A DNA stretch of 64,000 nucleotides from Acidocella sp. (GCA_027451225.1 DAIDJU010000189.1:8289-72288), one strand, 5' to 3'. Shown: positions 19,341-50,854, counted from the first letter of the stretch. The notes: a model not told the origin generated them from the sequence alone. A program made the numbers and translations.

Positions 19341-21128
19341 TCAGCGCACCTGCACGCGGACCAGCTCGCCGCCGTCCGGTGCCATCACATGGGTGGAGCA
19401 CGCCAGGCACGGGTCGAAGCTGTGCAGCGTGCGCAGGATTTCGAGCGGCTGGTTGGGGTTGGCCAGCGGCGTGCCGAGCAGCGAGGCCTCGAACGCGCCG
19501 ACATTGCCGGCCGGGTCCCGCGGGGAGCCGTTCCAGGTGGTGGGCACCACGGCCTGGTAGGACTCGATCTTCGCGTCCTTGATGTGCAGCCAATGGCCGA
19601 GCGCGCCGCGCGGGGCCTCGGCGAAGCCAACGCCCTTGACCTCGGACGGCCAGGTGCTCGGCTCCCAATTATCGGTGTTGGCGGTGGAGCTGTCGCCCGC
19701 CGCGATGGTGGCGATCAGGTGGTTGTAGCAATCCTTCAGCTTGTGCGCGGCCCAGCTGGCTTCCAGCGCGCGCGCAGCCGTGCGGCCCAGCGTGGTGAAC
19801 AGCGCGTTGAACGGCAGGCCGAGATCGGTGAGGAGCTTGTCCACCGGGTCCTTGAACTCGGCATTGCCCTGGGCGTAGCCAAGGGTGAAGCGCGAGAGCG
19901 GGCCGACCTCCATGGCTTGGCCGCGCCAGCGGGCGGCCTTGATGTAGGAGTATTTCGCCCCTTCATCGAGCTGCTGGATGTTGGTCTTGGTGCCGATCGT
20001 GTTGGGGCCAAGCTCAAAATTCGGCTCGGTGAGCCCCTCCCACGGGTGCAGGCCCTTCGACTCATCCGGGTATTTGTACCAGGAGTGATCGACGAATTCC
20101 TGCACCTGATCCGGGTCGGTGAGATCGACCGGCAGAATTTCGTTGAGATTGCCGTTGATGATAGCGCCGCGCGGGATCATCAGGTTGGTATAATCGTTGG
20201 CGTGGAGCGGGAACTCACCGTAGGAGATGATGTTCTTGCCCGCCAGGCCCTGGCCGTAATCCCAGTTCTTGTAGAAGCTGGCGATGGCCTTCACATCGGG
20301 GACATAGACCTGATCGACGAACTCGATGGTGCGGGAGATGATGTCCGCCACCAGATTGAGTTGGACGACATTGACCGGCGCGCCGGCGCCCATCTCGGCA
20401 TCCATGTTGATGGCGCAGGCCATGCCGCCCACCAGCCAGTTCGGGTGCGGGTTCTTGCCGCCGAACACGGTGTGGATCTTCACAACCTCGCGCTGGAAAT
20501 CAAGCGCTTCGAGATAATGCGCCGTGGCCATCAGATTAGCCTCGGGCGGCAGCAGATAGGCCGGGTTGCCCCAATAGCCGTTCATGAACGGGCCGAGCTG
20601 GCCGGAATCCACAAAGCGCTGCAGGCGGGCCTGAACATCCGAGAAATAGCCCGGCGAGGATTTGGCCCAGGGCGAGATGGACTGCGCCAGCGCGCTGGTC
20701 GCCTTCGGGTCGGCCTTCAGCGCGGAAATCACATCCACCCAGTCCAGCGCGTGCAGATGGTAGAAATGCACGAGATGGTCATGAATCCACAGCGTGAGCT
20801 GCATCATGTTGCGGATGGTGTTGGCATTCTCGGGGATCTTGATGCCCAGCGCGTTTTCCACCGCGCGCACCGAGGTGAGCGCGTGCGTGCCGGTACACAC
20901 GCCGCAGATGCGTTCGCAGAACGCCCAGGCGTCGCGCGGGTCGCGGCCCTTGAGGATGATCTCCAGCCCGCGCCACATGGTGCCGGTGGAAACCGCGTTG
21001 CGGATGATGTTGTTGCTGTCGAGGTTCACCTCGCAGCGCATATGGCCTTCGATGCGCGTAACCGGGTCCACCACCATGCGGCGGCCGGAATTGTCGAGCG
21101 TGAAACCGTTCGGCGTCTGCACGGTCAT
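19341..21128 (-). CDS. hyaB: [NiFe] uptake hydrogenase large subunit (HupL/HoxG/HyaB)
   Basis: [11 protein letters not shown]1 ERICGVC, L2 [11 protein letters not shown]. Confidence 0.97.
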
Positions 21129-22219
21129 TACTGCTTATCTCCCTCGCCCGGCTTGCGGGTAAAATGCTTCACGGCGCTGGCGCCTGCATGAGCAGCCACG
21201 CCGGCGAGCGCGGCGGCGGCGGCGGTGCCGCCGATCTGGTCGGCCGTGGCCTCGATGCCGAACCCGGCGCCGATATTGGCCAGACGCGAATAGAACGGCC
21301 CGTTATCCCAGAAATTCTCCTCGGAGCAGCCGATGCACCCATGGCCCGACTGGATGGGGAAGGACACGCCGCCATTCCAGCGCACGGTGGAGCAGGCGTT
21401 ATAGGTGGTCGGGCCCTTGCAGCCCATCTTGTACAGGCAGTAGCCCTTGCGCGCGCCCTCGTCGTCCCAGGACTGCACGAACTCGCCGGCATCGAAATGC
21501 GGGCGGCGGTAGCATTTGTCGTGGATGCGCTGGCCGTAGAACATGGCCGGGCGGCCGCGGCTGTCCAGCTCGGGCAGGCGGTCGAAGGTGAGGATGTAGG
21601 AGATCACGCCGGTCATCACCTCGGCGATGGGCGGGCAGCCCGGCACCTTGATGATCGGCTTGTCGGTGATCACCTTGTCGATGGGCACGGCCTGGGTGGG
21701 GTTGGGCTTGGCGGCCTGCACGCAGCCCCAGCTGGCGCACGCGCCCCAGGCGATCACGGCCTTGGCATTCGCCGCGACCGATTTCAGCCGCTCCACGAAC
21801 GGCTTGCCGCCGATGATGCAGTACATGCCGTCTTCGTTCAGCGGCGGGTTGCCCTCCACCGCCAGGATGTACTCGCCGGGATATTTGTTGGGAATCTCGT
21901 CGAGGATCGCTTCGGCGTCATGCCCTGCGGCGGTCATCAGCGTGTCATCGTAATCGAGCGAGATCATCTTCAGGATGACATCGGAGGAGAGCGGGTTGCC
22001 GGAGCGGATGAACGATTCCGAGCAGCAGGTACATTCCAGCCCATGCAGCCACAGCACCGGCAAGCGGGGCTTGGTTTCCATCGCATGGGCGATCTTGTCG
22101 GCATAAACCGGCTCAAGGCCCAGCGCCGCGGCCGTAAGGCTGCAGAACTTAAGAAAAGAGCGCCGGGATGTACCCTGCGCCCGCATCAGCTCGTAAAAAG
22201 TCTGAGGTTTATCCGCCAC
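21128..22219 (-). CDS. hyaA: [NiFe] hydrogenase small subunit, Tat-exported (HupS/HoxK/HyaA)
   Basis: SRRSFLK Tat motif, [19 protein letters not shown]-terminal anchor; GTG start after GGAGGGGGAG. Confidence 0.96.
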
Positions 22220-22330
22220 GCTGATTATCTCCCCCTCCATCAATCGGAGCGGCGTGCAACGGCAAATATGGGCGCCGTATACCCGCCGGCATAAGTGGTT
22301 ACCACTGGCCCGCTGCCAGCCGCGATTGCA

Positions 22331-22344
22331 TTGATTCAGATCAA
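22331..22344. promoter_or_regulatory. FNR/FixK-type box upstream of hydrogenase operon
   Basis: Perfect TTGAT-TCAG-ATCAA. Confidence 0.85.
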
Positions 22345-22540
22345 TCGATCCAGATCGGCAAGCTTCGTCCTCATGGGGACGCTCCGCAGTTTTGTTGTGC
22401 AACGCAACATGTTCTGCATCCCGCGCAAAGCTGGCAGGCGGATTATGGTCCACCGCCTTATGTCCAAGCGGGGGCGGATCGTTTATCACCCCTGGCGTAA
22501 AGCGGCCTGGAACGGGGCGGCTTTAGAATTTTGTTCTTAG

Positions 22541-24076
<1,536 letters not shown>

Positions 24077-24085
24077 GACTAAACG

Positions 24086-24118
24086 AACCTCGCGCGGTTA
24101 ACCCCGCGCGAGGTTTTT
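24086..24118. terminator. Intrinsic terminator between convergent genes
   Basis: AACCTCGCGCGG-N6-CCGCGCGAGGTT followed by TTT. Confidence 0.8.
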
Positions 24119-25558
24119 CATGACCGCATCGCGCTGCGCGGCCTTGGGGCTTGCAGCGTCGATCCGGGTCCAGCCGATCTCCCCCGTCTCCCATTCGCGC
24201 TGCCGCCGCAGCACATCAGCTCCGGCATCCGAGGCATCCCCGCGCCTGGCATCGAGCCGCGCGATCAGCACCTCATCCGGCGCGTCCAGCCAGACGCCCG
24301 TAAACGCCACGCCCAGACGCCCCGCCAGAGCCGCGGCGGCCTCGCGCTCCTCACGGCGCAGAAAGGCGGCATCCAGAATCACGCTATAGCCGGCGTCCAG
24401 CGCCGCCTCGGCCTGGGTCAGCAGTTCGGCATAGACCTTGGCGCTCATCTCCCGCGTATAGGCGCTCTCGGGCAGGCGGGTTTCCGGCGGCACGCCGCAC
24501 AGGGTCTTGCGCAGCACATCACTCCGCAGCACCCGCGCACCGGGCGCCGGGGGTAGTTCGGGCGCCACAGCCGCCGCCAAGGTGGATTTGCCCGAACCGC
24601 TGACGCCGCCAACGGCCAGCAGGCGCGGCGTGGCCGGGCGCAGCACCAGCGCCGCCAAAGCGAGATATGTTTTCCCTTCCTCCCCCCTGCCCTGCGCCGC
24701 CAGCACATGGGCGCGGATAACCGCCCGCACGGCGATGAACAGCTTCATCGCCGCCATGCCATCGGCCTCCTTGGCGCGATCGAGATAGCGGTTGAACACC
24801 AGGGCGGCGAAGCAGCTTTCGCCCCGGCGCAGCAAATCCATGAGCAAAAAGGCGAGGTCGTAAAGCGGGTCGATGCAGGCGAAATCGTCCGAGAACTCGA
24901 TGCAGTCGAACAGCAAAGGCCGGCCCTGCCAGAGCACGATATTGCCCAGATGCAAATCGCCATGACAGCGCCGTATGCCCGCGCCGCGGGCTGTCAGCAG
25001 AGCGGCGTGAGCCTCCACCGCCACGCGGCAGGCGGCGTTCACCTCGTCCACCAGCGCCGGGTCGAACCCCGCCTTGGCGAGGTTCTCCGCATTGCCCTCC
25101 ACTACCCCGCGCAACAACGCCGCGCCATCGCGCGGGGTGCGCTCAGCCGCTTGGTGGAAAGCAGCGATATTATCGGTGAGGTCGCGCAGCAACGGGGCAC
25201 TCAGCCGCCCCGCCTTGGCCAGGGAATCGAAGATATCCGCCTCGGCGAAGCGGCGCATCTCCAACACATAATCCACCGCCTCACCCGGCCCATCAAACTC
25301 CAGCCCGCCCGATGCCGCGCGGGTGATGGCGCGGACCCGGCGATAAAGCTGCGGCGCGGTGCGACGGTTCAGCGCCAGCTCGGCCTCGCAAAAGGCCTTG
25401 CGCCGGACCGGTGTAGAATAGTCGAGATAGGAGAACCTCACCGCACGCTTGAGCTTGTAGGCGGTGCCGGCATGCAGGAAGACGATGGAGATATGTGTCT
25501 CCGCCCGGGCCTCAGCACCCTGGGCGAGGTAGGCTATGACCTCGTCCTGGTCAGGCAC
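24098..25558 (-). CDS. Aminoglycoside-phosphotransferase-like plus P-loop kinase fusion (Rv2004c-like)
   Basis: ETHIS, AYKLKR, CHGDLHLGN, FDCIEF; C-terminal GGVSGSGKST. Confidence 0.88.
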   Translation of the reverse strand: MPDQDEVIAYLAQGAEARAETHISIVFLHAGTAYKLKRAVRFSYLDYSTPVRRKAFCEAELALNRRTAPQLYRRVRAITRAASGGLEFDGPGEAVDYVLEMRRFAEADIFDSLAKAGRLSAPLLRDLTDNIAAFHQAAERTPRDGAALLRGVVEGNAENLAKAGFDPALVDEVNAACRVAVEAHAALLTARGAGIRRCHGDLHLGNIVLWQGRPLLFDCIEFSDDFACIDPLYDLAFLLMDLLRRGESCFAALVFNRYLDRAKEADGMAAMKLFIAVRAVIRAHVLAAQGRGEEGKTYLALAALVLRPATPRLLAVGGVSGSGKSTLAAAVAPELPPAPGARVLRSDVLRKTLCGVPPETRLPESAYTREMSAKVYAELLTQAEAALDAGYSVILDAAFLRREEREAAAALAGRLGVAFTGVWLDAPDEVLIARLDARRGDASDAGADVLRRQREWETGEIGWTRIDAASPKAAQRDAVMKNLARG

Positions 25559-27392
25559 GGTCCGTCCAGGGCGGGATCCTGGCGGCCAGCTCGTCCAGCT
25601 TGGCGCCCGAGATCGTCTCGTCCTTCAACAGTTCCTTCGCCGCCTCGCGCAACACGGGCATGTTCGCCTGCAAGATGGCGCGGGAGCGGTTGAAAGCATG
25701 CTCCACCAGATCGTGGATGGCGGCATCGATGGTCGCTGCCGTCTGCTCCGAGTATTGGCGCGGCCGCCAATCCGGCACGCCGGTGGGGCCGAGCAGATGC
25801 TGCGTCTCCGGCTCGTAGGTCATCTGGCCGAGTTTATCGTCCATGCCGAAGCGCACGACCATGGAGCGGGCGATGTCCGTGGCGCGGGCCAGATCGTCCG
25901 ACGCGCCGGTGGACACTTCGGGGAAGATCAGCGACTCCGCCGCCCGCCCGCCCAGCAGCACGGTCATGCGGTTCATCAGCTCGGCGCGGCTCATCAGGAA
26001 ACGATCCTCGCCCGGACGCTGGATGGTATAGCCCAACGCCGCCAGCCCGTGCGGGATGATGGAGATTTTCTGTACCTTGTCACTCTCGGGCAGGGCCATG
26101 GCGGTGATGGCGTGGCCCAGCTCGTGATGCGCCACCACCTCGCGTTCCTTGGGCACCAGCAGGCGGGTGCGCTTCTCCAGCCCGGCGATGATCCGCTCCA
26201 CCGCCTCGGTAAAATCCTCCAGCGTCACGGCCTCGGCTTGGCGGCGGGTGGCCAGCAATGCCGCCTCGTTCACCAGATTGGCGAGATCAGCGCCCGTGAA
26301 ACCCGGAGTAAGGGCCGCGATTTCCTCGGGCGAGATGCCCGGGGCGAGCTTCACCTTGTGCATGTGCAGATTGAGGATCTGCACGCGCCCGGCCTTGTCC
26401 GGCCGGTCCACCAATATCTGCCGGTCGAACCTTCCGGCGCGCAGCAAGGCGGGGTCGAGAATCTCGGGCCGGTTGGTGGCGGCCAGCAGCACCACGCCGG
26501 AGGAGGGGTCGAACCCGTCCATCTCGGCGAGGAGCTGGTTCAGCGTCTGCTCTTTTTCATCGTTGCCGCCGCCGGGGATCGCGGCGTTGCGGGCGCGGCC
26601 CAGGGAGTCCAGCTCGTCGATGAAGATGATCGCCGGGGCGGATTTGCGGGCCTGGTCGAACAAATCGCGCACGCGCGCCGCCCCCACGCCGACAAACATC
26701 TCCACGAATTCGGAGCCGGAGATGGAGAAGAACGGCACATTCGCCTCGCCCGCCACGGCGCGGGCCAGCAGGGTTTTGCCCGTGCCCGGCGGGCCGACCA
26801 GCAGCACACCCTTGGGGATATGCGCGCCGAGCCGGCCATAAGCGGCGGGGTCTTTCAGGAAGTCCACGACCTCCTTCAGCTCGGCCTTGGCTTCCTCCAC
26901 CCCGGCGACATCCTTGAACCGTACCGCCACGTCGCTCTCGGCATAGACCCGCGCGCGGCTCTTGCCGACGGCCAGCACGCCGCCAGCCCCGCCCATGCGC
27001 CCACCCAGCAGCATGTACCAAAGCCCGCCGAACAGCAGCAGCGGAGCCAGCCAGCCGAGCAAATTGGAAAGGAAACCCGGTGCCGGTTCACCGGAAAACG
27101 TGACCTTCTGCTTGGCCAGATCCTGCGCCAGAGCGGGGTCAACGCGGTCGGTCTCGAACTGGGTCGGCTGGCCGGGGGCGGCGTTCTTCAGCGTGCCGGT
27201 GATCTGGCTCTCGCCGACCATCAGATTATCCACCTGCCCGGCCTGCAACAGGGACTGGAACTGGCTGTAGGGGATGATTTTCACCTGCTGCTGCGCCTCG
27301 CGGCTCAATGCCGAGAACACCAGCAGCGAGATCAGCACCGCGGCGAGGACAAAGCCAAAACGTGAAACGTTGTCATTAGTCTCTTTCGCCAC
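25551..27392 (-). CDS. ftsH: ATP-dependent zinc metalloprotease FtsH (probably an accessory paralog)
   Basis: Two TM segments, GPPGTGKT, IIFIDELD, AATNRPE, HELGH. Confidence 0.95.
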   Translation of the reverse strand: MAKETNDNVSRFGFVLAAVLISLLVFSALSREAQQQVKIIPYSQFQSLLQAGQVDNLMVGESQITGTLKNAAPGQPTQFETDRVDPALAQDLAKQKVTFSGEPAPGFLSNLLGWLAPLLLFGGLWYMLLGGRMGGAGGVLAVGKSRARVYAESDVAVRFKDVAGVEEAKAELKEVVDFLKDPAAYGRLGAHIPKGVLLVGPPGTGKTLLARAVAGEANVPFFSISGSEFVEMFVGVGAARVRDLFDQARKSAPAIIFIDELDSLGRARNAAIPGGGNDEKEQTLNQLLAEMDGFDPSSGVVLLAATNRPEILDPALLRAGRFDRQILVDRPDKAGRVQILNLHMHKVKLAPGISPEEIAALTPGFTGADLANLVNEAALLATRRQAEAVTLEDFTEAVERIIAGLEKRTRLLVPKEREVVAHHELGHAITAMALPESDKVQKISIIPHGLAALGYTIQRPGEDRFLMSRAELMNRMTVLLGGRAAESLIFPEVSTGASDDLARATDIARSMVVRFGMDDKLGQMTYEPETQHLLGPTGVPDWRPRQYSEQTAATIDAAIHDLVEHAFNRSRAILQANMPVLREAAKELLKDETISGAKLDELAARIPPWTDRA

Positions 27393-27423
27393 GTTGGGCC
27401 TCCCCAGTGCCGCCGCGCGGCGT

Positions 27424-27891
27424 TCAGCCCTTCAGCTTGCCCGTCGCCACGGCGCGGACGATATCGGCGCGGCTGACAATGCCGATCACCTTGCCTTCCT
27501 TCAACACGGGCACGCGCTTGATATGGTGCTGCGCCAGCAAATCCACAATTTCCGCCACGGCAGTATCTTCGACGACGCTGACCACGTCGCGCGTCATCAG
27601 GTCTTCGGCGGTGCGCTTTTCCTGCTTCAGATATTCCACGAAATCGGGCGCCAGATCCTCGCCCTCGGCCAGCATTTGCAGCCACCAGGCGCGGCGGTCC
27701 TCCTCATGCGCGCCCAGCCGGCGCATCAGGTCCTGCTCGCTGACCATGCCGAGCAGCTTGCCCGCGGCGTCCACCACCGGGGCCGCGCTGATTCCATGCT
27801 CGGCCAACACACCCGCCACCTTCGACACATTGTCGAACGGGTGCACCACCACGGGGGTGCGGTTCATGATATCGGCTGCCGTCACGGTCAT
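27424..27891 (-). CDS. CBS-pair protein
   Basis: Two CBS repeats (ISAAPVVD..GMVS; IKRVPVL..GIVSRADI). Confidence 0.9.
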   Translation of the reverse strand: MTVTAADIMNRTPVVVHPFDNVSKVAGVLAEHGISAAPVVDAAGKLLGMVSEQDLMRRLGAHEEDRRAWWLQMLAEGEDLAPDFVEYLKQEKRTAEDLMTRDVVSVVEDTAVAEIVDLLAQHHIKRVPVLKEGKVIGIVSRADIVRAVATGKLKG

Positions 27892-27946
27892 TTTAACTCA
27901 TCCCTGTGTTTATGGCCGGACATTGCCACGCGCCGCCCGTACCGCA

Positions 27947-27960
27947 TTGATTTCTATCAA
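27947..27960. promoter_or_regulatory. FNR/FixK-type box upstream of CBS-ftsH-kinase operon
   Basis: Perfect TTGAT-TTCT-ATCAA, centre about 62 bp from CBS start. Confidence 0.85.
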
Positions 27961-27989
27961 CCGGAACGAGCGGACGCCAGAGACATTAA

Positions 27990-28132
27990 GAGACTGTTCC
28001 ATAAGCCTACTCTGGCGGCCGTCTGGTCGCGATTTTCTGCGCGCCGGTGCTCACGTACCTTAAGTACGCTCCGCTCCGGTGCTCGAAAATCACGCCCAGA
28101 CGACTCACCAGAGCGACTTCTGAAACAGTCTC
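27990..28132. repeat. 143-bp palindromic element, RPE-1-like / MITE-like
   Basis: Terminal inverted repeats GAGACTGTT/AACAGTCTC, central CGTAC-CTTAA-GTACG, open frames on both strands; second copy at 41216. Confidence 0.75.
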
Positions 28133-28136
28133 TGAC

Positions 28137-32308: not shown

Positions 32309-32322
32309 TTGATTTGTATCAA
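32309..32322 (+). promoter_or_regulatory. FNR/FixK-type box with no protein gene downstream
   Basis: Perfect TTGAT-TTGT-ATCAA between convergent genes. Confidence 0.85.
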
Positions 32323-32356
32323 GGAACGGATCCGCGAAGAGAGGCATCTATTGGTC

Positions 32357-32419
32357 ATCCCAAAGCGGATACACTCCCCAGACTTGGCCCTGCCGCGAGA
32401 AATCGTGGCAGGGTTTTTT
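32357..32419 (+). ncRNA. Candidate FNR-activated sRNA, SuhB/MmgR (alpha-r8)-like
   Basis: ATCC/GGAT 5' hairpin, unpaired CACTCCCCAGACTT, terminator CCCTGCCGCG-AGAAAT-CGTGGCAGGG-T6; 5' end inferred from FNR -41.5 geometry. Confidence 0.7.
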
Positions 32420-32523
32420 CTTGGAGCACACCAAATAATAAGTTTTTATATCAGAATGTAATTTCTGGTGATTTTACCTTGATGTAACAAAAATTTTTGG
32501 TGCAGCTTTTCTCAAAAATCCGC

Positions 32524-35074: not shown

Positions 35075-36418
35075 TTAAGCAGCCCTGAATTCTCTCCCGC
35101 GCCCATTGAGACGGGCCCGCAGCCCCGCAGGCAGCTGGCGGGCGGATTTGGCGCGAGGGTAATCCATCTCGATGATCGGCTCCACCGGGGCGGAGCGCTC
35201 ATCCCAATTATGGAAGTTCATACGGTCGATATTATCGACGAACGACTCCGTCGGCGCGCCCTCGGCCAGCAACAGCTCATGCGCCTCAAGCTCGACATGA
35301 TAATAGTTGAAGGCCTCAGGCACGTCATGCTCGCGTGTGATGCCGGGGCAACCAACCAGCGCCGAAGCCTGCACCAGAATACCGTCGAGGAACATGGCAT
35401 GATCCGGCGAAACCAGCAGGTCACGCACAGGCAGGTTATCACCCAGTGCCCCGGCGGCGATGCGGATGGGGAATGCACGCAGCGGATCGGCGAAAACGGT
35501 GGAAACGCGGCTCACGCCGAGCCAGCGGACCTCCGCCACACGGCCATCGGCCAGGCGCAGACGAGTACCAGGCACCACATCCTGCACCTCGATCTCCCCA
35601 TCCTCGGCGGCAAGGCGCGTGCCAGCGCAGAAGCAGGGATAAGTGTACCCGGAAGAGGTCGAAGTCAGCGCGATGGTGTTGGAGGTGGAGGTGTTGTTCC
35701 ACCCCGTCGTCCCGGCAGCCAGCGTAACGGTGCCCAAATTGCTGCCGCCACTGCTGGCGTTCGACAGCTCATATAGCGTCTGGCCGCTGCTGTTGGTTTT
35801 GCCGGTATCGATCAGGTAGAGCGTCTGACCGCCTTCGCTGATCGTATCGCCATACGTAAAGTTCTGGAGCGTCAGCCCTGAAGTCCATTGGGGGATAGAA
35901 AGCAGGTTACCAGTGCCCGAAAACACGATCGTGGCCGAGGGACCGCTGCCGGTAAACGTCAAGGTCGCGGAACCGCCAAGCGTCACAGTGCCGGAACCGC
36001 CGATCGGAGAATTGTCGGTGAGGCTGGTGCTGGTGAGCAGCAGGTTCTGCCCCGAAGCCAGCGTCAGCGTGCCGGAATTGGTGACCGTGCCACCGGAAAT
36101 CGTCGCGGTGCCCGTACCGGACATCGTCAGATCGCTGGACAACGTGGTGTTGGATGCCAGTTTGATCGTCGACCCGGCGTCGATTTCCAAAGCTGTTGTC
36201 GCCGAAAGCGTGTAGGCGCCGGAGAAAGACACTGTCGCGCCATTTGTAATGGTCAGACTGGCAACATTGGCGCTGCTCGTGAGTACAACCGTGGCGCTCG
36301 TGTTGAATGCATACACATTGCCGTTATTGCCCGGCGTCGTATTCGGGCTCCAGTTCGTCGCCAGGCTGAAGGTCGTACCGTCACCAGCGCCAGTCCAATA
36401 TACCGTAGCCACAAACAT
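35075..36418 (-). CDS. Hint_2 (BIL-type) domain protein with Thr/Ser/Gly-rich beta-repeat N-terminus
   Basis: PCFCAGTRL..VRWLG..LLVSPDHAM..YYHVELEAHELLLAEGAPTES; start may be GTG 36412 given AAGGAG spacing. Confidence 0.88.
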   Translation of the reverse strand: MFVATVYWTGAGDGTTFSLATNWSPNTTPGNNGNVYAFNTSATVVLTSSANVASLTITNGATVSFSGAYTLSATTALEIDAGSTIKLASNTTLSSDLTMSGTGTATISGGTVTNSGTLTLASGQNLLLTSTSLTDNSPIGGSGTVTLGGSATLTFTGSGPSATIVFSGTGNLLSIPQWTSGLTLQNFTYGDTISEGGQTLYLIDTGKTNSSGQTLYELSNASSGGSNLGTVTLAAGTTGWNNTSTSNTIALTSTSSGYTYPCFCAGTRLAAEDGEIEVQDVVPGTRLRLADGRVAEVRWLGVSRVSTVFADPLRAFPIRIAAGALGDNLPVRDLLVSPDHAMFLDGILVQASALVGCPGITREHDVPEAFNYYHVELEAHELLLAEGAPTESFVDNIDRMNFHNWDERSAPVEPIIEMDYPRAKSARQLPAGLRARLNGRGREFRAA

Positions 36419-42129: not shown

Positions 42130-42207
42130 GCAGGGTGAGTTTCTCCCCTGTTTCTTGGACGTTTCCTCCCTAAACTTGGCGGCGCTACATTAGCGCCGCC
42201 TTTTTTT
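42130..42207 (+). ncRNA. mmgR: MmgR/SuhB (alpha-r8)-family sRNA
   Basis: CAGGG/CCCTG hairpin, TTTCCTCCCTAAACTT core, GGCGGCGCTA-CAT-TAGCGCCGCC-T7; convergent with N-formylglutamate amidohydrolase. Confidence 0.8.
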
Positions 42208-43081
42208 ATTCGGCGGCAGCGCAATAGCTTGGGCCGGCGGCGCCCCAGAGACGCATGGCATCGGCCATATCCCGCAGAAAACCGCTCAAGCGCTCCTGTA
42301 CCTGGGGAAAGCGGGCGTTGTAGGCGAATTGCCGCTCATGCATGTACAACCCGCGTGCGACTTCAAGCTGCACCACCTGCACACCCTCGCGCGGGCGGCC
42401 GTAATGGCGGGTGATGAAGCCCCCGGCATAGGGATCGTTGCGGCGGACGGAAAAGCCATGCCCGGTGAGCAGGGACTCGATATACGCGGTCCAGGCCGGC
42501 GTGCAGCTTGTGCCATGGCCGTCCCCCAGCACGATATCGGGGCGGTTGTGGCTTCGCCCGGGCGGGGTGGGCATGGAATGGCAGTCCAGCACCAGACAAT
42601 GGCCGAATTCGGCCTGGGTTTCCTCGATCAGCGTGGCCAGCGTCTCGTGGAAGGGCTGCCAGCAATTGCGCACGCGCGCCTCGGCTTCGGCAAAATTCAG
42701 CTTGCGGGCGTAAATCGGCTCGCCCGTGCCGACAATCCGCGCGATCGTCCCCAGCCCCGCCGCCACGCGCGGGCTGTGGCGGTTCACGTAATCGGGCAGT
42801 TCGTCTGCGAACATGCCGGGGTCCAACTCCCAGGGCTCGCGGTTGGCGTCGCACCAGGCGCGCGGGAATTCCGCCGCCAGCAGCGGCAGCCCCAAAGCGG
42901 GGCCAGCGCCGAACAGCTCCTCCACGAAACTGTCCTCCGAGCGGCGGATGGCCTGCGCGTCCAACCGCGCCTGGGCCAGGAATTCCTCCCCATAATACCG
43001 CCCCGAATGCGGCGAGGTAAGCACCAGAGCGGCACTCTGGCGTTTGGGCCGCAGCAATGTGAAGGGCGACAAATCTTTCAT
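42206..43081 (-). CDS. N-formylglutamate amidohydrolase family
   Basis: TSPHSGR, DANR, DCHSMP, RNDPYAGG, VQLEVAR. Confidence 0.9.
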   Translation of the reverse strand: MKDLSPFTLLRPKRQSAALVLTSPHSGRYYGEEFLAQARLDAQAIRRSEDSFVEELFGAGPALGLPLLAAEFPRAWCDANREPWELDPGMFADELPDYVNRHSPRVAAGLGTIARIVGTGEPIYARKLNFAEAEARVRNCWQPFHETLATLIEETQAEFGHCLVLDCHSMPTPPGRSHNRPDIVLGDGHGTSCTPAWTAYIESLLTGHGFSVRRNDPYAGGFITRHYGRPREGVQVVQLEVARGLYMHERQFAYNARFPQVQERLSGFLRDMADAMRLWGAAGPSYCAAAE

Positions 43082-50553: not shown

Positions 50554-50647
50554 AAAGCCCTCCCACCCCGCGTAACGATGCCAAAACCGCGGCGGCGGGT
50601 CAATAAACGATTGCCATAGGTAGGTTTTTCCGCACGAAGGGGATTGC

Positions 50648-50801
50648 GGAGCCGCCCTGGCCGTTGGCGTGTACATCCTCCCAAGGCCTGCTTGTGCAGG
50701 TGGGCGCCAGATAACCGGACCAATGGCCCGGCCAGAGCCAGCTCCCGAGGGAGATGCTTAACGGCCCTGGGGATGATTTGCCTGACGAACCGGGCAGCTC
50801 C
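50648..50801 (-). ncRNA. ssrS: 6S RNA
   Basis: Closing stem GGAGCTGCCC / GGGCGGCTCC, internal GGGAGCTG..GGCGCCCACCT typical of alphaproteobacterial 6S, directly behind zapA. Confidence 0.8.
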
Positions 50802-50854
50802 AGCCTTCTACTTAGGCGCGGAGCGCCAGCGGCGCAATGTGTTCCGTGCGCGGG

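Follow-up and report, generated by a model that had tools for sequence, protein, structure and literature searches.

Gene organization of the locus

Acidocella is an acid-loving bacterium of soil and water in the family Acetobacteraceae. We analyzed a 64,000-nt stretch of DNA from this genus (hereafter the window), concentrating on three consecutive genes that encode a protein with a pair of CBS domains, an FtsH-type membrane protease, and a two-headed kinase, and that follow a perfect FNR/FixK-type operator box. Coordinates count from the first letter of the window, and all three genes lie on the minus strand. The elements of this putative operon are listed below.

27947..27960, minus strand: FNR/FixK-type box, TTGAT-N4-ATCAA, sequence TTGATAGAAATCAA, perfect
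27892..27946, minus strand: leader and promoter region between the box and the CBS start, with the ribosome-binding site GGGATGAG
27424..27891, minus strand: CBS-pair gene, 155 amino acids, two Pfam CBS domains
25551..27392, minus strand: accessory ftsH, 613 amino acids, domains FtsH_ext, AAA, AAA_lid_3, and Peptidase_M41
24098..25558, minus strand: two-headed kinase gene, 486 amino acids, domains APH (residues 120-272) and AAA_33 (residues 313-455)
24086..24115, strand not assigned: G+C-rich hairpin common to the operon and a convergent CoA-transferase gene

According to the list of open reading frames (ORFs), a 31-bp spacer with a GGGGAGG ribosome-binding site separates the CBS gene from ftsH, and the end of ftsH and the beginning of the kinase gene have 8 nt in common (GTGCCTGA). 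An earlier reading of this DNA, made by a model from the sequence alone (hereafter the sequence-only reading), had described three co-oriented genes with a 31-bp and an overlapping junction, exactly as the ORF list has them, and had placed a strong terminator at their end. The layout fits one transcript, and we infer that the three genes are co-transcribed. The hairpin consists of 12 pairs, nine of them G-C, and folding of the 56 nt of the operon strand that include it gives -28.4 kcal/mol. Its loop contains the stop codon of the kinase gene (24098-24100), and the convergent succinyl-CoA:acetate CoA-transferase gene, which ends at 24076, uses the same structure. On the plus strand the stem is trailed by an uninterrupted T-run (TTTTT); because the tail on the operon strand is only CGTTTAGTCT, the description as a strong terminator suits the stem and applies less well to the tail. 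Pfam and NCBIfam identify the window neighbors of ftsH as the CBS, kinase, DUF779/ExaC, and CoA-transferase genes.

An FNR-type operator shared with low-oxygen genes

The center of the operon box lies 62.5 bp 5' of the CBS ATG. The window contains three perfect boxes and one site with a single mismatch against 0.75 sites expected, and none of 100 shuffled sequences reached four. Across the 2.6-Mb assembly, nine perfect boxes (0.23 expected from base composition) and 46 one-mismatch sites (9.8 expected) are present. The genes beside the nine perfect boxes, named by Pfam on the flanking ORFs, are as follows.

Perfect box adjoining cydAB (cytochrome bd oxidase genes)
Perfect box at 22331-22344, adjoining NiFe hydrogenase small and large subunit genes, in an intergenic region common with a CoA-transferase gene
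Perfect box adjoining hemB and an Nramp transporter gene (mntH)
Perfect box adjoining an hsp20 gene
Perfect box adjoining a flavin reductase gene
Perfect box adjoining a 2OG-Fe(II) oxygenase gene
Perfect box at the 5' end of a CRP/FNR-family regulator (fnr) gene itself
Perfect box at 32309-32322, intergenic
Perfect box at 27947..27960, CBS-ftsH-kinase operon

A one-mismatch box additionally abuts hemN. This make-up is that of a classical low-oxygen set, and the operon belongs to the FNR regulon by its operator; most likely it is activated when oxygen is low. The perfect FNR box of the sequence-only reading is thereby borne out as one member of a genome-wide regulon, and it recurs in every genus locus that carries all three genes (see below).

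The regulator P0004, which contains cNMP_binding and HTH_Crp_2 domains and has its own box, carries a C-x2-C-x7-C cluster near its N-terminus together with a central cysteine, an arrangement that we take to be the FnrN-type Fe-S pattern. A second CRP/FNR paralog (37% identity; G000 C106, L229:1012-1710) is FixK-like in that it has no N-terminal cysteine cluster, and its recognition helix is nearly identical to that of the FnrN-type protein.

Two of the boxed neighborhoods have further features. The fnr gene (G000 C80, L023:3018-4603) is directly followed by a gene for a 234-amino-acid protein with a CBS pair and a BON domain, which is 35% identical to the operon CBS protein; a similar CBS-BON gene is found at a locus in another genus (L131). 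The hydrogenase region of the window (19341-22489, minus strand) encodes the large and small subunits of a NiFe uptake-type enzyme and is divergent from the succinyl-CoA:acetate CoA-transferase gene. Because the small-subunit ORF, as annotated from its GTG start (22489), includes the box, the true start is probably located further downstream.

The window FtsH is a second, accessory copy

The window FtsH scores 749.5 bits against NCBIfam TIGR01241, above the cut-off of 600, and 553 bits against the E. coli-type equivalog PRK10733, below the cut-off of 1008. It combines two transmembrane helices, assigned by visual inspection of the sequence, and a periplasmic domain with an AAA module and an M41 zinc protease; the Pfam FtsH_ext match covers residues 16-103. 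An alignment of 30 sequences shows the Walker A motif GPPGTGKT (200-207) and the Walker B residues DE (259-260) to be invariant, along with the pore loop F233-G237, the arginine fingers R318 and R321, the motif H423-E424-x-x-H427, and D500. Judged by these residues, the protein is predicted to be fully catalytic, with both ATPase and protease motifs intact.

A profile search of the same genome returned the window ftsH and two pieces located at contig ends, one on C69 (profile positions 2-425, 652 bits) and one on C175 (positions 379-598), to which the window FtsH is 53% and 39% identical, respectively. We read the two pieces as one housekeeping ftsH that is probably broken by an assembly gap. 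All five genus genomes that were checked, one of them a single closed contig, contain one copy scoring ~881-890 bits and one scoring ~735-752 bits. The window ftsH is thus a second copy beside the housekeeping gene. The sequence-only reading had proposed a dedicated FtsH and suggested looking for a separate housekeeping ftsH and building a tree; since such a gene exists elsewhere in the genome, the window copy is not the only ftsH, and the tree places it in an accessory clade.

For comparison outside the genus, we used the 80 closest relatives of the window FtsH, which are 50-67% identical and come from many phyla. Five of the 80 belong to named genomes (Mesorhizobium, Brucella pseudogrignonensis, Pseudomonas frederiksbergensis, Bradyrhizobium iriomotense, and Marinobacter halodurans), and each of these genomes has two copies, of which the one related to the window FtsH scores lower. 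A quick tree of 103 rows (one locus was dropped for want of an ORF of 480 amino acids) and a careful tree of a 50-row subset agree on the placement. In both, the Acidocella accessory copies are monophyletic (100/100) and form the sister group of the Mesorhizobium accessory copy, with a copy from an Acetobacteraceae metagenome-assembled genome next. In both, they fall with all five named accessory copies into a 100/100 clade, and the housekeeping FtsH proteins form a separate 100/100 clade on a long branch. The accessory clade mixes Alpha-, Beta-, and Gammaproteobacteria with records from Planctomycetota, Spirochaetales, and Myxococcales and is incongruent with the species phylogeny. It also includes copies that adjoin genes for a ClpG-like disaggregase, sHSP20, DegP, thioredoxin, PsiE, and an M48 protease; these neighbor families were defined by BLAST clustering and by Pfam on cluster representatives. 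No ClpG-like or sHSP20 gene was found among the Acidocella loci examined with three queries, Pfam having been run on part of the flanks.

We consider it likely that an FNR/FixK-type regulator activates the operon as one transcript, which provides additional FtsH2-type protease when oxygen is limiting, together with a CBS accessory and a coupled kinase. The clade also lends itself to another account, in which the genes make up a heat or proteotoxic-stress unit like the transmissible locus for protein quality control (TLPQC) and locus of heat resistance (LHR) islands and the box answers a non-oxygen signal or is a repressor site. The membership of the Acidocella FtsH in a 100/100 clade with copies beside ClpG-like, sHSP20, DegP, thioredoxin, and PsiE genes would suit such a unit, as would the boxed hsp20 gene and the cysteine-less regulator paralog in the same genome. 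We nonetheless regard it as distinctly improbable: no island genes flank the Acidocella copy, the other boxed genes (cydAB, hemN, hydrogenase, and fnr) are classic low-oxygen targets, and a box center 60-78 bp from the start codon suits activation better than repression, an argument that draws on general knowledge of class II FNR promoters.

Conservation within the genus

The genus assignment rests on the names given to close homologs, A. aromatica and A. aquatica among them. The accessory FtsH (at least 72% identity) is present in 32 of 63 genus genomes. We examined 31 loci, 30 of them from those 32 genomes (G208 and G228 were left out) and one a decayed locus, L034. The full CBS-ftsH-kinase triad occurs at 20 of the 31 loci, and at all 20 a box lies upstream of the CBS gene, perfect in 15 cases and with one mismatch in five. 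The box center is 60.5-78.5 bp from the CBS start at 19 of these loci and 177.5 bp from it at L224; at L214 the kinase gene is cut by the contig end. L224 (G224:C6) contains five FNR-type sites, three perfect and two with one mismatch, located in the ~1 kb that precedes the CBS gene and in the CBS-ftsH spacer, and its ftsH match is split over two frames. Six further loci that retain ftsH in whole or in part have the following arrangements.

L223: ftsH-kinase, the contig beginning within ftsH
L228: ftsH and kinase remnants
L219, L220, and L225: ftsH alone, with a one-mismatch box at 60.5-66.5 bp
L221: ftsH alone, with a perfect box at 281.5 bp

A box is kept at four of the six loci in which ftsH stands alone (L219-L221 and L225, as opposed to L226 and L227). 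When nine upstream regions were aligned, the box and the next three bases were the sole conserved block. The corresponding region of the window fails to align with its relatives because a dispersed palindromic repeat of ~145 bp sits there (27989-28133), immediately 5' of the operon box. This repeat resembles miniature inverted-repeat transposable elements or repetitive extragenic palindromes, has 17-nt inverted ends, and yields 21 matches in the same genome, among them four other near-full-length copies (C134, C95, C78, and C131) and several of half length.

The junction between ftsH and the kinase gene is also retained. Among the ten loci first fetched, the tblastn matches to the two genes abut or overlap in nine, the tenth being L034, which has an ftsH remnant only; ORF coordinates give the same 8-nt overlap as in the window at L030, L032, L033, and L035. 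From the sub-combinations found across the genus loci it follows that the stable association is that of the box with the accessory ftsH. The CBS and kinase genes often accompany these two but are dispensable.

Distribution outside the genus

The triad was not found outside Acidocella among the 80 FtsH relatives and 40 kinase loci from other genera of the family. Of the 80 FtsH relatives, five have a box (one mismatch at most) within 350 bp upstream, against ~1.5 expected from the site density in those loci; one of the five is perfect, at 53.5 bp (L092). The kinase family itself occurs in 88 of 150 other genomes of the Acetobacteraceae (E <=1e-30). At one locus of another genus (L131, G170), a CBS pair of orthologue grade (54% identity) accompanies the kinase without ftsH, with FNR-like sites upstream. 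Two short ORFs, partial ATP synthase alpha/beta (288 amino acids) and gamma (252 amino acids) sequences that may be broken genes, lie between the boxed CBS gene and the kinase gene there (L131:2607-4098).

Five loci from other families of the class, and one locus at a contig end, carry the kinase gene without ftsH or a CBS gene. Directly downstream of the kinase gene, a tandem universal stress protein (USP) gene of ~291 amino acids is present in 38 of 45 loci (L127-L166 and L036-L040), and MarR and pirin genes often lie beyond it (Pfam on representatives). The Acidocella genome under study has a USP orthologue (C53) that is unlinked to the kinase gene and has no box upstream. A second kinase copy on C120 continuing onto C53 was considered and rejected, as no overlap was found.

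Several observations weigh against an FNR/FixK-activated operon built around the accessory FtsH with a CBS accessory and a coupled kinase. No good sigma-70 -10 element was recognized between the box and the CBS start, and the cysteine-less CRP/FNR paralog could, from its recognition helix, be the true binder of the box. Within the genus, L030 has ftsH and the kinase gene with neither a CBS gene nor a box; L218 has the CBS gene and ftsH without the kinase gene, its single one-mismatch site lying between the two; L226 and L227 have ftsH alone without a box; and L034 has the kinase gene beside a 58-residue ftsH remnant. Matches are split in three of the triad loci, in the kinase gene at L041 and L211 and in ftsH at L224, which may reflect frameshifts or assembly errors. 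Outside the genus, no CBS or kinase homolog occurs within 4 kb of any of the 80 FtsH relatives, and ftsH is near the kinase gene at none of the 40 fetched loci from other genera of the family. Such separability within the genus speaks against an obligate cooperation of the three. The module of the sequence-only reading, for which neighborhood conservation had been named as a check, is accordingly not a fixed one: the triad was found in a single genus, and sub-combinations are found even there.

The same distribution allows the three genes to be no more than co-regulated passengers, namely a spare protease, a nucleotide-binding stress protein, and a metabolite kinase that act independently within the FNR regulon, with no physical or regulatory coupling. 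Every sub-combination is found in the genus, and outside it the kinase gene pairs with a USP gene and, across 40 loci, never with ftsH. The kinase domains resemble small-molecule kinases (choline/ethanolamine kinase, maltokinase, methylthioribose kinase, and gluconokinase), and the kinase and FtsH trees indicate different gene origins. Against this account stands the pattern of translational coupling formed by the 8-nt ftsH/kinase overlap in the window and the abutting or overlapping genes at nine other loci with both. Kinase remnants persist beside ftsH at L228 and an ftsH remnant beside the kinase gene at L034, and the ftsH-kinase pair has therefore long been together. We hold independent passengers to be a real, if lesser, possibility.

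The CBS protein

The CBS protein is a stand-alone pair of two Pfam CBS domains (E 1.7e-31). Between them lies a helical insert of ~35 residues (approximately residues 58-92) with the motif RRAWWL..LAEGE.LAP.F..Y, in which W69, W70, L71, E76, G77, F84, and Y87 are invariant in the alignment. An AlphaFold2 (AF2) model (mean predicted local distance difference test, pLDDT, 84.4) has the form of a standard Bateman module and renders the insert, placed at 58-66, with low confidence. The best Foldseek matches are a Sphaerobacter CBS domain (4esy), HRP1/Rv2626c, MJ0100, and nucleotide-bound AcuB, all with E-values within one order of magnitude; HRP1/Rv2626c (27-28% identity, E 6.6e-13) ranks between 4esy and MJ0100. 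In a phmmer search HRP1 ranks 13th (E 6.2e-12), the match covering the second CBS domain only. HRP1 chains have 122-133 residues and lack the insert, and the window protein has 155. Because other CBS pairs match equally well, the likeness to Rv2626c is generic, and the proposal that the CBS protein is the Rv2626c counterpart finds no backing beyond the general CBS-pair fold.

The kinase

The Pfam APH match of the kinase is partial and weak (E 3.6e-10). The AF2 model has a pLDDT of 92.7 and a predicted template modeling score (pTM) of 0.92. With Foldseek, the N-terminal half matches choline/ethanolamine kinase-family proteins, mycobacterial maltokinase, and methylthioribose kinase, as well as homoserine kinase II, glucosamine kinase, and APH enzymes, and the C-terminal half matches gluconokinase and polynucleotide kinase; identities range from 11 to 26% and E-values from 1.6e-6 to 1e-4. 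Structures of APH(2'') are 14-15% identical and rank below the sugar and choline kinases. Both active sites (K35/K37, E60, HGDLHxxN, the metal-binding Asp D218, and GxxGxGKS) are intact in 60 homologs. A sequence search of solved structures gave only a marginal glucokinase match (E 0.0055), and no solved structure was found that fuses both kinase folds. On these grounds we take the protein to be a double kinase, probably with a small-molecule substrate, a protein substrate being possible.

Databases name the protein 'bifunctional aminoglycoside phosphotransferase/ATP-binding protein', with both domains in one chain. Its family is large, with 7652 matches among 8000 scored candidates, and its look-alike cluster in the protein atlas is commonest in Actinomycetota. 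We built a kinase tree of 57 rows, from which split and truncated copies were excluded and in which N-terminal over-extensions were trimmed. In this tree, a single clade with 100% support unites the 39 kinases of the remaining fetched loci of Acetobacteraceae; across that branch lie the Acidocella kinases, their second paralogs, the L131 kinase, and five from other families. In view of this split, the operon kinase is not simply the family's vertical orthologue. A literature search on the bifunctional aminoglycoside phosphotransferase returned resistance surveys only, one pairing aminoglycoside phosphotransferase with Rv2004c returned one review, and one on Acidocella returned nothing on the CBS-ftsH-kinase operon.

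The database name and the Pfam APH match, together with weak NCBIfam matches to anti-phage CBS and AAA models, could be taken to mean that the kinase is an aminoglycoside-resistance enzyme or that the triad is an anti-phage defense system, and Rv2004c is reportedly credited with streptomycin resistance in the title of a paper cited in PMC9036649. We give this almost no weight. The APH match is as weak and partial as noted above, true APH enzymes do not outrank the sugar and choline kinases in the fold search, and the genomic context is respiratory and metabolic, not mobile. As to defense, PADLOC recognized neither the CBS protein nor the kinase and registered no more than a generic AAA similarity in FtsH, and we rejected this reading.

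The sequence-only reading had likened the triad to a dormancy module, with an adenylate-sensing CBS protein as possible adaptor or substrate of FtsH. In its full form, such a module would be functionally equivalent to proteins of the M. tuberculosis DosR regulon, and the kinase would regulate the CBS protein and FtsH. The triad and box kept at 20 genus loci are in keeping with such a module. The CBS insert combines strong conservation with poor order in the monomer model, a frequent trait of segments that bind partners, and HRP1/Rv2626c is among the top structural matches. Elsewhere the kinase family is linked to a tandem USP gene in 38 of 45 loci, and the DevR-controlled USP gene Rv2005c is reported to lie in one operon with Rv2004c (PMC3177182). 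The M. tuberculosis parallel holds in part, the place of Rv2004c in the DosR regulon and its operon with Rv2005c being in print, but the CBS match to Rv2626c is, at 27-28% identity, like that to unrelated CBS pairs. Moreover, ftsH occurs without the CBS gene at L030, L219-221, and L225-227, and the CBS and kinase genes occur without ftsH at L131. On balance we consider such a module unlikely.

Proposed role of the operon

The best explanation of these observations is a lineage-specific Acidocella operon whose core is an accessory FtsH of a horizontally spread 'FtsH2-like' clade, wired into an FNR/FixK-type regulon. As oxygen falls, the FnrN-type regulator (or the cysteine-less FixK-like paralog) would bind the TTGAT-N4-ATCAA box and activate a single CBS-ftsH-kinase transcript. 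The extra FtsH would then raise the capacity for protein turnover, in the membrane and in the cytoplasm, as the cell changes over to cytochrome bd, hydrogenase, and oxygen-independent heme synthesis. As an adenylate-responsive accessory, the CBS pair would most likely report adenylate status. The kinase, a small-molecule-type double kinase with a USP partner elsewhere, would be translationally coupled to FtsH. The targets of the CBS protein and the kinase, and any contact of either with FtsH, are matters of speculation. In a bolder form, the accessory FtsH would be a dedicated low-oxygen remodeling protease, gated by the coupled kinase and, via the CBS protein, by the energy status of the cell, and the kinase with an adenine-nucleotide-binding partner would be a widely conserved hypoxia-survival pair that has so far escaped notice; we doubt that both hold together. 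If they did, the partner, a CBS pair in Acidocella, would in most lineages be a tandem USP, and unrelated regulators would have recruited the pair independently, DosR in mycobacteria and FNR in Acidocella.

Accessory FtsH proteases are known mainly from heat-resistance islands, cyanobacteria, and plastids. What is new here is the combination, an accessory FtsH inside an FNR regulon; the parts are known, and this is not a new class of system. The conserved operator ties a member of the widely spread 'FtsH2' clade to oxygen limitation and so offers a condition for a substrate search. The operon also places a large uncharacterized double-kinase family under the same control, and an oxygen-linked operator here together with USP adjacency elsewhere makes the function of this kinase family approachable by experiment in an acidophile that is harmless and can be cultivated.

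A candidate small RNA and other features of the window

The intergenic perfect box at 32309-32322 begins a candidate FNR-dependent small RNA (32309-32425, plus strand; ~60-70 nt), which lies between a convergent sigma-54 activator gene and hemN. Some 35 nt beyond the box follows a highly conserved body that combines a small hairpin at the 5' end, an unpaired C-rich segment (ACACUCCCC), and a strong terminator composed of a hairpin and a T-run (-36 kcal/mol, z -4.1). Copies occur in 29 of 63 genus genomes, often at a distance of ~5 kb from the CBS-ftsH-kinase operon. Box and body are invariant in 12 aligned copies and the spacer is variable, with compensatory changes at two terminator pairs. 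Rfam gave no family match for 32309-32425; by position we take the candidate to be analogous to enterobacterial FnrS. The window RNAs that Rfam recognizes are a 6S RNA (50645-50803, minus strand) and an mmgR/suhB-type small RNA (42138-42214, plus strand). A gene for a 447-amino-acid Hint-domain protein (35075-36418, minus strand) lies close to hemN.

Comparison with known systems

The closest published parallel to the protease is FtsH2 of P. aeruginosa clone C (PACGI-1/TLPQC; Kamal et al. 2019), which is described as a xenologue whose clade is incongruent with the species phylogeny (PMC6629908; see PMC10850787). It is further placed among cls, clpG, shsp20, and trxA and is reported to be expressed conditionally, in late stationary phase (PMC6629908). 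Like PaFtsH2, the Acidocella copy is a second FtsH with intact catalytic residues beside a housekeeping copy, and its clade is incongruent with species; the link between the two runs through the copies with ClpG-like, sHSP20, and thioredoxin neighbors, PaFtsH2 itself not being among the rows of our tree. Conditional expression, published for PaFtsH2, is predicted for Acidocella. Unlike PaFtsH2, the Acidocella copy has no island genes and instead has CBS-pair and double-kinase genes and an FNR box.

The regulatory side resembles the FNR/FnrN/FixK regulons of Proteobacteria in its consensus box, in a boxed regulator with an N-terminal cysteine cluster, and in the canonical targets cydAB, hemN, and uptake hydrogenase. 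It would differ from them in having ftsH as a target, since our literature searches turned up no report of ftsH under FNR or FixK control.

With the DosR/DevR set the Acidocella genes share a stand-alone CBS pair, an hsp20-type chaperone, and flavin/nitroreductase-like proteins, which are hypoxia-regulated in M. tuberculosis. Rv2004c is presumably a protein of the APH/AAA_33 fusion family, as would be suggested by the look-alike cluster being commonest in Actinomycetota and by the paper title that links Rv2004c to streptomycin resistance. The regulators differ, being NarL-type in M. tuberculosis and CRP/FNR-type in Acidocella, and the DosR set is not known to include an FtsH. Rv2004c is given as a DosR-regulon gene (PMC5483032) and Rv2005c (USP)-Rv2004c-Rv2003c is listed as one DevR-controlled operon (PMC3177182), which the kinase-USP pairing at the Acetobacteraceae loci mirrors.

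Both halves of the kinase share folds, catalytic loop, metal-binding Asp, and P-loop with the APH/choline-kinase-fold enzymes and the gluconokinase/polynucleotide kinases, from which the protein is set apart by its low identity (11-26%) and by the fusion of two folds in one chain. The CBS protein has the Bateman-module fold of the adenine-nucleotide CBS pairs AcuB (with AMP, ADP, or ATP), CBSX1/2, and MJ0100 and differs from all of them in its conserved 35-residue helical insert. For a CBS pair attached to a membrane metalloprotease, the CBS domain of an archaeal site-2 protease (PDB 5g5r) provides a precedent.

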